Shown piece by piece: positions 18,214 through 21,024 of a DNA stretch of 64,000 bases (positions are counted from its first letter, which is position 1; each line of letters opens with the position of its first letter). The notes under the pieces are model-generated. The model did no database searches. It was not told where the DNA came from and worked only from the letters and a program-made list of their open reading frames with translations. The position numbers and the translations under genes were made by a program. Source of the stretch: Shigella phage ESh17; sequence record ON528727. The stretch is one strand, 5' to 3'.

Positions 18214-18791
18214 AAGCGAGTACAGTACTTCAAATTGCATATTTAGTATCACAGGAATCAAAATGTTGCTCCTGGAAGGTAGGAGCAGTAATTGAAAAGA
18301 ATGGACGTATTATTTCTACTGGGTATAATGGTTCCCCAGCAGGGGGTGTGAACTGTTGTGATTATGCTGCTGAGCAAGGTTGGTTGTTGAATAAGCCTAA
18401 ACACACTATCATTCAAGGTCATAAGCCTGAATGCGTATCATTTGGTTCAACTGATCGTTTTGTTTTGGCGAAAGAACATCGTAGCGCTCACTCTGAATGG
18501 TCGTCTAAAAATGAAATTCATGCTGAACTAAATGCAATTTTGTTTGCTGCACGAAATGGTTCTTCTATTGAAGGTGCTACTATGTATGTAACACTTTCTC
18601 CTTGCCCAGATTGCGCAAAAGCAATAGCTCAATCTGGTATTAAAAAGCTGGTTTATTGCGAAACATATGATAAAAATAAACCTGGCTGGGATGATATTCT
18701 GCGAAATGCAGGTATTGAAGTGTTTAATGTTCCTAAGAAAAACTTGAATAAGTTAAATTGGGAAAATATCAACGAATTCTGTGGTGAATAA
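18210..18791 (+). CDS. cd: dCMP deaminase
   Basis: 193 aa with zinc-binding deaminase motifs HAELNA and PCPDC. Confidence 0.95.
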   Translation: MKASTVLQIAYLVSQESKCCSWKVGAVIEKNGRIISTGYNGSPAGGVNCCDYAAEQGWLLNKPKHTIIQGHKPECVSFGSTDRFVLAKEHRSAHSEWSSKNEIHAELNAILFAARNGSSIEGATMYVTLSPCPDCAKAIAQSGIKKLVYCETYDKNKPGWDDILRNAGIEVFNVPKKNLNKLNWENINEFCGE

Positions 18792-19027
18792 TGAAATTTC
18801 GTTTGGTAAAGCTTACAGCAATTAGTTCTTATTCTAACGAGAACATCTCATTTGCTGTAGAGTATAAGAAATATTTTTTCTCTAAATGGAAACAGTATTA
18901 TAAAACTGATTGGACTAGTATTGATAGACCGTATAGTTGGAAATCTGATTTAGAAAAATGCCAAAAATTACTTTCCACCCTTAAAGAACGTGGAACAACT
19001 CATATTAAAACTGTAATAGGTAAATAA
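18791..19027 (+). CDS. Hypothetical protein (31.2 position)
   Basis: 78 aa ORF, TAATG overlap with cd. Confidence 0.55.
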   Translation: MKFRLVKLTAISSYSNENISFAVEYKKYFFSKWKQYYKTDWTSIDRPYSWKSDLEKCQKLLSTLKERGTTHIKTVIGK

Positions 19028-19336
19028 ATGAAACTGACAACTGAGCAGAAAGTAGCAATTCGTGAAATTTTGAAAACTAAACTGTCCATGGGTGTTTCAA
19101 ACGTAGTTTTTGAAAAGTCTGACGGTACTATTCGTACTATGAAAGGTACTCGTGATGCAGACTTTATGCCAACCATGCAAACTGGTAAATTGACTGAATC
19201 TACTCGGAAAGAATCTACTGACATGATTCCAGTATTTGATGTTGAGCTTGGTGCGTGGCGAGGTTTTTCTATTGACAAATTGATTTCCGTTAATGGTATG
19301 AAAGTTGAGCATTTGCTTCAATTTATTGGTAAATAA
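19028..19336 (+). CDS. Hypothetical protein (31.1 position)
   Basis: 102 aa ORF. Confidence 0.55.
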   Translation: MKLTTEQKVAIREILKTKLSMGVSNVVFEKSDGTIRTMKGTRDADFMPTMQTGKLTESTRKESTDMIPVFDVELGAWRGFSIDKLISVNGMKVEHLLQFIGK

Positions 19337-19392: not shown

Positions 19393-19728
19393 ATGTCTGA
19401 AGTACAACAGCTACCAATTCGTGCTGTCGGTGAATATGTTATTTTAGTTTCTGAACCTGCACAAGCCGGTGATGAAGAAGTTACAGAATCAGGACTTATT
19501 ATCGGTAAACGTGTTCAAGGTGAAGTTCCTGAACTGTGTGTAATTCACTCTGTTGGTCCTGATGTTCCTGAAGGTTTCTGTGAAGTTGGTGATTTGACTT
19601 CTCTTCCAGTTGGTCAAATTCGAAACGTTCCACATCCTTTTGTAGCTCTGGGTCTTAAGCAGCCAAAAGAAATTAAGCAAAAATTCGTTACCTGTCACTA
19701 TAAAGCTATTCCGTGTCTTTATAAGTGA
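19393..19728 (+). CDS. 31: Co-chaperonin gp31 (GroES analogue)
   Basis: 111 aa [29 protein letters not shown]... Confidence 0.92.
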
Positions 19729-19875
19729 TATAAATAATAATATGAATTGGGTGTCGGAATAATAAGTTAACCGAACAATTCTATGTGGTAGTCTACAACT
19801 GAGAGATCTGTCGAAAGAAGATGAAATTCAGAAGAACGTGACTACCGAGTTTTAATCTCTAACGAGAATTTTTAA

Positions 19876-20124
19876 ATGATTAAACAATTACAACACGCTC
19901 TTGAACTGCAACGAAACGCATGGAATAATGGTCACGAAAACTATGGCGCATCTATTGATGTTGAAGCCGAAGCTCTTGAAATCCTGCGTTATTTTAAACA
20001 TCTGAATCCTGCTCAAACTGCATTAGCTGCTGAGCTTCAGGAAAAAGATGAACTTAAATATGCTAAGCCTCTGGCTTCTGCTGCACGAAAAGCAGTTCGT
20101 CACTTTGTGGTAACACTGAAGTAA
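19876..20124 (+). CDS. rIII: rIII lysis-inhibition accessory protein
   Basis: 82 aa MIKQLQHALELQRNAWNNGHENYG... Confidence 0.88.
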   Translation: MIKQLQHALELQRNAWNNGHENYGASIDVEAEALEILRYFKHLNPAQTALAAELQEKDELKYAKPLASAARKAVRHFVVTLK

Positions 20125-20368
20125 TTTATTGGAGATTCACTGCCTTAGTGTGAGCTAAAATCGAGGAGCCGTCGAACTGTCTGATTAATGATTTGCGAAT
20201 CATTATAGTTTTAAGACCCCGGCAGTTTTACGGTGTACCTCTTGAATGTGAATGATGACGGGTTTATGGTTATCCTGTCGGTAAATATACAAAACCTAAG
20301 TACCCCCTTGAGGGCTTGCGCAGGCAATGCCAATAAGTCCTGCATTTTCATTTAAAAGAGAATTTATA

Positions 20369-20545
20369 ATGGCAAAACAAGTTAAAGCAAAGAAAGCAGT
20401 TGAAAAGAAAGTTGGTGATTCTAAACGCGCTGGCTACAAGCGTGGGTCGAACTCTCGTATCAATCAAACTGTTGAGAAGATCATGCGCCGAGCACGTGCG
20501 GTTCTTCGAGATGATGCTTCTCGTTTTGGTAAGCAGAAAGCATAA
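20369..20545 (+). CDS. Small highly basic hypothetical protein (30.9 position)
   Basis: 58 aa MAKQVKAKKAVEKKVGDSKRAGYKRG..., followed by strong terminator. Confidence 0.5.
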   Translation: MAKQVKAKKAVEKKVGDSKRAGYKRGSNSRINQTVEKIMRRARAVLRDDASRFGKQKA

Positions 20546-20550
20546 GTTGA

Positions 20551-20574
20551 GGACTCCTTCGGGAGTCCTTTTTT
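20551..20574 (+). terminator. Intrinsic terminator after 30.9-position ORF
   Basis: GGACTCC-ttcg-GGAGTCC then TTTTTT. Confidence 0.8.
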
Positions 20575-20598
20575 ATTTTCCAAAGATTGCATAAAGTT

Positions 20599-20628
20599 GT
20601 TTACAGTATAGTTCCTTTGTGATAGTAT
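20599..20628 (+). promoter_or_regulatory. Early promoter
   Basis: GTTTACA, 18 nt, TAGTAT; CCTTTGT 20614-20620 is complementary to ACAAAGG at the SD. Confidence 0.5.
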
Positions 20629-20655
20629 TATCTTACACAAACAAAGGAGAATAAA

Positions 20656-21024
20656 ATGAAAATCAATCTTAACTCATACATCAAAGGTAAAGATCACGAC
20701 GGCTATAAAGCTATCGAAACTAAAGAACTTCAGTGGCACTTATACAAAGAACAATTTGAATTTGTAAGTTGCATGACTCCTGAAGGTCCTTCTGATGATT
20801 TCTCTTGGAAAATAATGTTAACTAACTTTTTTACTGGAGATACATACGAATTGAAAACTTTGATTATTGGTAAAATTCGTTGTGAGACTTATGAAGATAA
20901 AGAAACTGGTTACTCTGAAGATGTTACGTGGTATCAAAATGGTCGTATTACCGCTGACCTCTTGATTGAAAAAATGAAAGCCAAAGGTGAATTAAATTTA
21001 GATAATTGGATTAAAGTTGCATAA
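20656..21024 (+). CDS. Hypothetical protein (30.x cluster)
   Basis: 122 aa ORF, SD AAGGAG, early promoter upstream. Confidence 0.55.
   Translation: MKINLNSYIKGKDHDGYKAIETKELQWHLYKEQFEFVSCMTPEGPSDDFSWKIMLTNFFTGDTYELKTLIIGKIRCETYEDKETGYSEDVTWYQNGRITADLLIEKMKAKGELNLDNWIKVA

Follow-up and report, generated by a model that had tools for sequence, protein, structure and literature searches.

The gap between genes rIII and 30.9 of Shigella phage ESh17 (sequence record ON528727, of which a stretch of 64,000 nucleotides, the window, was analysed) contains a discrete structured RNA of ~90 nt that is kept by selection, here called M1. It is followed by M2, a putative leader of gene 30.9 that comparison across relatives shows to hold a covarying pseudoknot and to stay attached to 30.9 across Tevenvirinae genera. 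We propose that the gap is a transcribed rIII-30.9 spacer built from folded plus-strand modules, in which M1 would be a stable accessory RNA and M2 a cis-acting leader, and we give this joint reading a probability of about 0.5. The structure of M1 is well supported; the functions of M1 and M2 we infer.

The gap comprises 244 bp (20125-20368), between the rIII stop codon at 20122-20124 and the ATG of 30.9 at 20369. The original prediction, made from the letters of the window, had placed a real gap after rIII. Its boundaries were exact and the strings it quoted are present, and T4 has the same unannotated 244 bp: the counterpart, NC_000866 130541-130784, has the same length and layout and is blank in the annotation of both NC_000866 and AF158101. 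The prediction had also described the gap as GC-richer than its surroundings. This did not hold, as gap GC is 0.402 and the values for rIII (0.406) and 30.9 (0.441) are equal or higher. Whole-window GC is 0.361 (standard deviation 0.04), 14.7% of 244-bp windows match or exceed the gap, and the argument for a GC island is weak.

The window is from a Tequatrovirus, and over positions 19700-20700 it matches Shigella phage ESh18 at 100% identity and hundreds of T4-like genomes at 95-99%; a BLAST search with the gap alone matched 770 phage records. Identity to the window in two further genera was as follows.

RB69 (Mosigvirus): rIII 86%, 30.9 90%, M1 100%, M2 92%
IME08 (Dhakavirus): rIII 84%, 30.9 68.5%, M1 97.7%, M2 90%

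The non-coding spacer is thus better conserved than its coding flanks and therefore calls for a functional explanation. M1 has the following parts.

20159-20247, + strand: M1, structured RNA cassette of about 89-90 nt
20163-20166 with 20238-20241, + strand: helix P1, covariation
20168-20172 with 20230-20234, + strand: helix P2, covariation
20174-20181 with 20220-20228, + strand: helix P3, covariation
20186-20205, + strand: helix P4, 8 bp (20186-20193 with 20198-20205), loop UGCG at 20194-20197, covariation
20182-20185 (UGAU) and 20206-20219 (UAGUUUUAAGACCCC), + strand: conserved unpaired stretches

The fold obtained with RNAalifold has a long irregular stem (P1-P3), an asymmetric junction and P4 capped by a UNCG-type tetraloop; from nine M1 copies it gave 26 pairs, 10 of them compensatory. 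Among 19 distinct copies, standard pairs occupy 98.6% of cells and double changes occur in 11 of 27 pairs. The covariation score is 0.322, which none of 500 shuffles reached. Slid controls, in which the 3' partners were moved by 1-3 columns, scored at most 0.099 and left at most one pair with a double change. P1 occurs as GAGG/CCUC, GGGG/CCCC or AGGG/CCCU and P2 as CCG/CGG or CUG/CAG, P3 gained two base pairs jointly on both strands, and P4 occurs as AAUGAU/AUCAUU, ACCGAU/AUCGGU or AGCAAU/AUUGUU. The hairpin AATGAT-ttgcga-ATCATT picked out in the original prediction is real and lies at 20187-20204 in P4, whose stem is actually 8 bp long and closed by a UGCG tetraloop; compensatory changes in relatives support it. 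Two G.U pairs are invariant and several U.G/G.U intermediates occur. The functional strand is the plus strand, since the G.U pairs would be A.C mismatches on the other one; it is also the strand of all neighbouring genes. The M1 copy of the window has a minimum free energy of -25.9 kcal/mol (z -3.28, reached by 0 of 200 shuffles), compared with z -2.10 for the minus strand, and its minimum free energy fold is the covariation structure. An M1 covariance model found exactly one copy in the 64-kb window, with 112.6 bits. For the unpaired CCCC and UUUAAG of M1, no pseudoknot partners consistent across lineages were found.

M1 is not confined to Tequatrovirus, Mosigvirus and Dhakavirus: three unrelated lineages, Kuravirus, Vequintavirinae and Stephanstirmvirinae, have it too. 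About 28 records of Kuravirus podoviruses contain it, and in Kuravirus MN05 it is a clean insertion of ~92 bp relative to phiEco32, between the upstream stop codon and the operon terminator that precedes terL. It is also carried by a few Vequintavirinae (W70, A73, A5-4, LTH01). The W70 copy is preceded, ~135 nt away, by a sigma70-like promoter (TTGACA-17-TAAGAT), and tRNA genes come directly after it. In Phapecoctavirus phiWec188/190, M1 together with two further elements of the spacer, the hairpin P0 and cassette 1b (see below), fills the interval between tRNA-Gln and tRNA-Pro, with a U-run at the end. In the unrelated phage phi92 (NC_023693 53489-53836) the entire gap is present in T4-type form, at 96% identity, inside a tRNA gene cluster. 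In Kuravirus and phiWec190 a hairpin plus U-run follows within 10-60 nt after M1. The genes downstream of M1 differ by context and are 30.9, terL or tRNAs. Pattern scans of IMG/VR, of 185,579 species genomes and of JGI metagenomes gave only T4-like and Kuravirus-like contigs. Loss or decay was also found: phage 310Ecol104PP is without the P4 hairpin and junction, and BCPEco001 is without P0 and M1. We conclude that M1 moves horizontally among coliphage lineages that are unrelated, that some T4-like phages can do without it, and that it has no fixed gene partner. Of the interpretations offered in the original prediction, a small RNA thus has comparative support for the M1 half of the gap, as a discrete, covarying and mobile RNA module.

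Some of these M1 copies have further peculiarities. A 13-bp direct repeat, TTTATTGGAGATT, flanks the phi92 insert and runs into the tRNA-Gln acceptor arm, and a permuted rIII 3' end follows the insert; what is annotated as 'rIII' in this phage, gene_113, is the 30.9 leader and ATG joined in frame to ~28 codons from the end of rIII. The insert looks like a circularised fragment integrated by microhomology. One relative contig keeps only a degenerate M1 stem, and another has a deletion that fuses M2b, the hairpin part of M2, to the interior of 30.9. In W70 an unannotated homolog of T4 species 2 RNA (rnaD), with the common strings UAAGUCGUCGGACUGAUG and AUCACAGCAGAAACGGCGCACC, lies just after tRNA-Met. 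Right after M1, W70 also has a sequence that resembles a tRNA with a long extra arm; it is unannotated, ARAGORN does not call it, and it is conserved in many unrelated phages.

We propose that M1 would work as an RNA and not through its neighbouring gene. It would be cut from the transcript, as the copies inside tRNA gene clusters would be, persist as a stable RNA, and act by binding or titrating a protein of the host or the phage, which could give it an accessory role in host takeover or counter-defence. M1 is probably a stable protein-binding RNA. We favour such a stable, processed molecule because its neighbours vary, because it occupies operons of tRNA or other non-coding RNA genes in two lineages, and because its unpaired nucleotides and G.U pairs are invariant.

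The main rival is an exclusively cis-acting role for M1 and the remaining hairpins, which might be cleaved by RNase III or RNase E or protect the 3' end of the upstream message, with M1 uncoupling the decay of the rIII and 30.9 segments. M1 is always on the transcribed strand, where it either follows a stop codon immediately, as in T4-like phages and Kuravirus, or separates RNAs that are processed; the T4-like copies lack a dedicated promoter. Its irregular duplex (P1-P3, ~18 bp with internal loops) resembles the phage RNase III sites of T7, and Tuerk and colleagues reportedly described in 1988 very stable tetraloop hairpins in T4 intercistronic regions. The T7 RNase III sites (R0.3-R18.5) and the 3'-untranslated-region small RNAs that share a terminator with an mRNA are likewise irregular hairpins or structured RNAs between cistrons or at mRNA 3' ends. 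Kuravirus M1 recalls their placement by its position between a stop codon and the operon terminator. However, simple barrier or cleavage hairpins need no invariant unpaired UGAUUA, UAUxGUUUU and CCxC, no invariant G.U pair and no C.U mismatch, and M1 spreads among unrelated phages and is found in operons for tRNA and non-coding RNA, which offer no mRNA in need of protection. Unpaired nucleotides that are conserved, and so wide a spread across phage families, are both atypical of RNase III sites. A purely cis function of M1 seems unlikely to us, but well worth keeping in mind.

A riboswitch-like sensor of the downstream gene, formed by M1 or by M1 plus M2, is improbable. The compact M1 fold with its highly conserved junction nucleotides, and the hairpin and U-run past M1 in Kuravirus and phiWec190, would suit such a sensor, and the topology of the M2a hairpin with its A-rich tail (see below) is that of small pseudoknot aptamers. 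A riboswitch would be expected with one gene class and an expression platform, but the genes after M1 (30.9, the terminase large subunit, tRNAs) are unrelated, T4 has no terminator after M1, and the Kuravirus terminator is present in phiEco32 without M1. No known riboswitch model matches either.

The second half of the gap, M2, is the part that stays linked to gene 30.9.

20253-20368, + strand: M2, leader of 30.9 with pseudoknot, two hairpins and Shine-Dalgarno (SD) region
20257-20296, + strand: M2a, predicted H-type pseudoknot, covariation
20257-20262 (GACGGG) with 20274-20279 (CCUGUC), + strand: M2a stem S1
20268-20271 (GGUU) with 20293-20296 (AACC), + strand: M2a stem S2, with A-rich loop 3 GGUAAAUAUACAAA
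20300-20343, + strand: M2b, two predicted hairpins
GUA-CCC(20305-20307)-CUUGA-GGG(20312-20314)-CUUG, + strand: M2b hairpin 1
20320-20324 (GCAGG) with 20339-20343 (CCUGC), + strand: M2b hairpin 2, conserved 14-nt loop CAAUGCCAAUAAGU
20345-20368, + strand: 30.9 translation initiation region, SD AAGAG at ~20356-20360 and spacer to the ATG at 20369
20369..20545, + strand: 30.9, basic protein of 58 amino acids, always downstream of a structured spacer

M2 is almost unvarying within Tequatrovirus, Mosigvirus and Dhakavirus, and distant Tevenvirinae were therefore gathered through 30.9 homology. In 21 sequences from several Tevenvirinae genera, M2a shows double changes in 7 of 12 pairs, and its covariation score is 0.340 compared with at most 0.105 for slid controls. 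The two helices and the covariation expected of an H-type pseudoknot are provided by S1 and S2: nucleotides of the S1 loop pair, as S2, with sequence past the conserved A-rich (G)UUAAAUAUCCAAAA. For the M2b hairpins the evidence is weak to moderate. Here 97% of cells pair, variants seen by eye in two relatives are GCC/GGC and CCUC/GAGG, and the loop CAAUGCCAAUAAGU is kept in Gelderlandvirus-type phages, where the stem reads AACUGG/CCAGUU. Closer to the start codon, UUUUC at 20345-20349 could pair with GAGAA at 20358-20362 over the SD, as judged by eye, and in other genera the same inspection found UCC-N5-6-GGA, or an anti-SD-like CCUCCUUA before GGAAG. The case for M2 rests on this comparative evidence, since energy alone is unremarkable. 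The order rIII, structured spacer, 30.9 is kept in every genus sampled (Jiaodavirus, Mosugukvirus, Gelderlandvirus, Karamvirus, Moonvirus and others); within that order the spacer is a mosaic, and the pieces found repeatedly beside 30.9 are the pseudoknot, the two M2b hairpins, the second with a variable stem, and the short pairing over the SD. Gp30.9 gave no Pfam match and no PDB relative; its only family match is PHROG 1427, which is of unknown function.

M2 is most likely a cis-acting leader of 30.9. It would set the translation and/or the stability of the 30.9 message through the pseudoknot, the conserved hairpin loop that resembles a binding site, and the weak pairing over the SD, and the basic 30.9 protein itself possibly controls it. 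A regulatory leader for the basic 58-residue protein, another of the interpretations first offered, has comparative support for the M2 half from the linkage to 30.9, the covarying pseudoknot and the SD region. A precedent exists in T4, where the autoregulatory leader of gene 32 consists of a 5' pseudoknot plus an A/U-rich operator; other translational operators of T4 are those of gp43 and RegA. Like gene 32, 30.9 has an H-type pseudoknot upstream of an A/U-rich initiation region and encodes a small protein that looks nucleic-acid-binding, and this likeness suggests that the 30.9 leader may be a cis-acting translational operator. Unlike that of gene 32, to which it has no sequence relation, the 30.9 pseudoknot lies ~75-110 nt before the start codon with two hairpins between.

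Several points weigh against the joint reading. Firstly, M1 has neither a promoter nor a terminator of its own in T4-like phages, so that its release as a separate RNA is an assumption. Its partner protein or target is hypothetical, and nothing like a host counterpart was seen: BLAST found no look-alike of the gap in 5,426 E. coli genomes, and the M1 model gave only noise (at most 9 bits) against an rrn operon. Secondly, parts of M2 are slight. Stem S2 of the pseudoknot has only 4 bp in the window, M2b has a single compensatory pair (A-U to U-A), the pairing over the SD amounts to 3-5 weak pairs, and the thermodynamic stability of M2 is ordinary (z -0.22). Thirdly, the identity within Tequatrovirus, Mosigvirus and Dhakavirus could partly reflect recent exchange and not constraint; for M1 and M2a this is countered by the compensatory changes seen there. 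Lastly, expression, processing or stability data for the spacer were sought in the papers covered and none were found. The literature search gave no paper that discusses the rIII-30.9 spacer, although the Fremin 2023 catalogue (10,006 viral structured-RNA candidates) may list its motifs.

Transcription of the spacer would come from upstream. The plus-strand gene order is cd, two small open reading frames (ORFs), 31, rIII, the gap, 30.9, a terminator and 30.8, and the features that frame the gap are the following.

19876..20124, + strand: rIII, 82 amino acids, ORF call and annotated as rIII in relatives, upstream of the gap
20549-20570, + strand: first intrinsic terminator past rIII, GAGGACUCCUUCGGGAGUCCUU plus U-run, with a C(UUCG)G loop; a terminator is annotated in relatives
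20600-20628, + strand: early-type promoter TTTACA-17-TAGTAT, after the terminator

The rIII gene has early, middle and late promoters (PMC9409239), and a late-promoter-like TATAAATA lies at 19729-19736. A scan for sigma70-type promoter-like and terminator-like sites found none on the plus strand in 20125-20368. Since rIII has these promoters and no terminator occurs before 20549, the spacer is expected to be co-transcribed with rIII and 30.9 throughout infection. The terminator and promoter at 20549-20628 resemble a PeSL, a terminator stem-loop plus early promoter of T4-type hyperplastic regions (Arbiol et al. 2010, PMC2839356; Comeau et al. 2014, PMC4122927). They form a cassette between 30.9 and 30.8 and mark the 3' limit of the rIII-30.9 unit. 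PeSLs are like M1 and M2 in being short conserved non-coding cassettes that mark recombination boundaries and move between T4-type genomes. In contrast, M1 and M2 are neither terminator nor early promoter, and what is conserved in them is RNA helices; no intrinsic terminator or PeSL was found in 20125-20368. Neither rIII nor 30.9 is mentioned in PMC2839356 and PMC4122927.

The conservation might instead reflect a signal on double-stranded DNA, such as a promoter or replication origin, or a site of recombination or homing. The cassettes do shuffle between genomes, with recombination junctions at their edges, and T4-type hyperplastic regions shuffle via promoter-terminator cassettes, the PeSLs (PMC2839356). 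Of the three T4 promoter types, early sigma70, MotA-dependent middle and late, none was found in the gap, where inspection by eye showed no TATAAATA and no TGCTT MotA box plus TAnnnT -10. The only arrangement resembling -35 and -10 elements, GTTTAT-18-TATACA, has a -10 that varies among relatives. The known T4 origins are located elsewhere. Covariation that makes sense on one strand, with G.U pairs, is the signature of an RNA, and we regard a DNA-level signal as very improbable.

A protein-coding explanation fares still worse. Comparison with relatives shows the gap to be non-coding, as nucleotides are conserved while frames shift or break. Three mechanical reading frames or starts are involved.

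20233-20355, + strand: GTG-start ORF of 40 amino acids, mechanical; annotated in ESh18 from a PHANOTATE call
20211-20351, - strand: ORF of 46 amino acids, mechanical
20327, + strand: upstream ATG in frame with 30.9

The statement that no ORF with a plausible start is visible in the gap was mostly correct; mechanical ORFs exist, but their frames are not kept in relatives. Either the 40-residue GTG ORF or the 46-residue minus-strand ORF could in principle be a hidden small protein gene or its decayed remnant. ORFs of 38-57 amino acids with the end ...PLRACAGNANKSCIFI are open in several relatives, and hypothetical proteins are annotated here in ESh18 and a few other records. However, the middle of the plus-strand ORF is read in two different frames among relatives while its nucleotides are conserved, and in T4 the ORF is split, O157 typing phage 3 and vB_SsoM_113 have a truncated version, and BCPEco001 has none, so that neither frame nor start codon is kept. 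The GTG has no SD and falls within helices P2 and P1 of M1. The indels among relatives are of 1, 2 and 5 nt; they shift the frames and are paired across helices, so that base pairing is kept. This also speaks against the decayed gene that had been put forward as a third interpretation, as does the finding that what relatives have here is other RNA cassettes and not ordinary coding sequence. We consider a hidden or decayed gene hardly credible. Apart from the GC argument the original prediction was largely right, and two of its three interpretations are supported, one per half of the gap.

The ESh18 record (ON528728, marked UNVERIFIED) starts 30.9 at the upstream ATG, which gives 72 amino acids (window 20327-20545), and labels two small ORFs after cd (window 18791-19336) 'tail fiber protein'. 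These labels, the 40-residue spacer ORF and the 72-residue version of 30.9 look like annotation artefacts, and the small ORFs that some records call in the spacer deserve removal.

Between the rIII stop codon and M1 lies one further element.

20137-20153, + strand: P0 hairpin, UCAC/GUGA stem with a 9-nt loop, UGCCUUAGU

In other genera P0 is within the conserved block GGUGAUUYRCUACCWWAGUGYRRCUAGAAAAU, and by eye its stem covaries (CAC/GUG, CGC/GCG, UGC/GCA, AGC/GCU). Its folding energy is unremarkable (z -0.16); it is missing from RB69 and placed differently in Jiaodavirus and Gelderlandvirus. The P0 region (20135-20162) could be thought a mimic or relic, either of the E. coli type I-F CRISPR repeat, acting as an RNA anti-CRISPR, or of the 5' part of tRNA-Gln. 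By eye, ATTCACTGCCTTAGTGTGAGCTAAAATC agrees with the I-F repeat, GTTCACTGCCGTACAGGCAGCTTAGAAA, at 18 of 28 positions, and the 13-mer TTTATTGGAGATT is common to the P0 region and to the 5' flank and acceptor arm of the phi92 tRNA-Gln. Retention of the repeat hairpin would be expected of an RNA anti-CRISPR, but the CUGCC/GGCAG stem of the I-F repeat is lost in P0, which covaries in another register, and no CRISPR direct-repeat or tRNA model matches it. An identity of 13 bp between two ~150-kb genomes is expected by chance, and is explained here as integration microhomology. Such an origin of P0 is accordingly most improbable. A pairing of the 5' end of the spacer, UUUAUUGG, with the M2b loop CCAAUAAG, which appeared in the minimum free energy fold, was rejected as not conserved, because RB69 is without the 5' partner yet keeps the loop. 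The spacer also has two GGAG motifs, the recognition sequence of the RegB endoribonuclease: one at 20131-20134, 7 nt past the rIII stop codon, and one at 20165-20168, in an invariant GGAGC that spans P1 and P2 of M1. M1 is present in phages not known to encode RegB as well.

The length of the spacer varies with the cassettes it holds.

119 bp: BCPEco001, M2 only
194 bp: 310Ecol104PP, top of M1 deleted
244 bp: T4 and the window
~263-327 bp: RB69, KarlGJung and IME08, extra hairpin cassette 1b between M1 and M2
~396 bp: vB_SsoM_113, cassette X between M1 and M2

Cassette X has a ~140-nt core in a ~152-bp insert, CGGCAAGUGCAUG...GCUAACGGUGUGCAACAGAUAAGAG, and is in the rIII-30.9 spacer of many Tevenvirinae genera. 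With 22 distinct copies RNAalifold gave 43 pairs, 23 of them with compensatory changes. X, like M1, is a strong candidate for a new structured RNA. Cassette 1b (CACGCGUCAGAAAAAGGUUAUCUGUCUAAGUCGUG) was deleted in T4 and the window; in phiWec190 it comes after M1 with a U-run following, and it is also found elsewhere in Karamvirus-like contigs. A search of four relatives against Rfam (E<=1) gave no match on M1, 1b, X or M2. A more far-reaching version of our proposal is that the rIII-30.9 spacer is an RNA accessory island, with mobile M1, X, P0 and 1b swapped with unrelated coliphages, and that M1 is a trans-acting decoy or sponge against a host factor or an anti-phage defence. We regard this as speculative and doubtful.

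M1 did not fall into any RNA class with which it was compared. The Rfam search suggested in the original prediction gave no family match, a result that says no more than that the curated families do not include the element: Rfam 15 had 0 matches at gathering score in the whole window, and none inside the gap when 19700-20700 was searched at E<=10. Weak Atu_C8 (E 3.7e-4, below gathering score) and Phe_leader matches are to the terminator after 30.9. There is no tRNA, as ARAGORN found none in the window, the Rfam tRNA model found none in the gap and the P4 loop has 4 nt. P4 as a mimic of a tRNA-Arg anticodon arm (loops TTGCGA, TTACGA) was rejected, since the covariation is that of an 8-bp stem with a 4-nt loop. 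A hammerhead was rejected as well: the junction is CUGAUUA in 19 of 19 copies, with U at the catalytic G, no GAAA follows P4, and no Rfam ribozyme matches. Closest in kind are T4 species 1 and 2 (rnaC, rnaD), which like M1 are phage-encoded, structured and non-coding, with function unknown. Both are encoded within the tRNA gene cluster and arise by maturation of longer transcripts, and the M1 copies of W70 and phiWec190 are in such clusters. Homology was rejected, however, as the M1 model has no match in the T4 tRNA/rnaC/rnaD region (E<=10) and there is no likeness by eye; M1 is also without a tRNA-like T-arm, and in T4-like phages it is in an mRNA spacer. In kind, the element appears to be a known one, namely a structured and conserved RNA cassette of phages together with an mRNA leader, with M1 itself uncurated.

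Although T4 serves as the reference phage, its annotation leaves this spacer blank, and the spacer holds at least one covarying RNA fold outside Rfam, with covariation as strong as in accepted RNA families. The M1 fold is found in four phage lineages that share little except that they infect enterobacteria, mostly E. coli and Shigella, and it frequently has tRNA genes as neighbours; this spread and setting point to an RNA function directed at the host. The spacer offers a handle on the regulation of 30.9, which is uncharacterised and widely conserved, and its interchangeable cassettes across Tevenvirinae offer one on how non-coding RNA modules move between phages. If M1 and the other cassettes do form an accessory island directed against the host, phages would trade RNA counter-measures as they do anti-defence protein genes.

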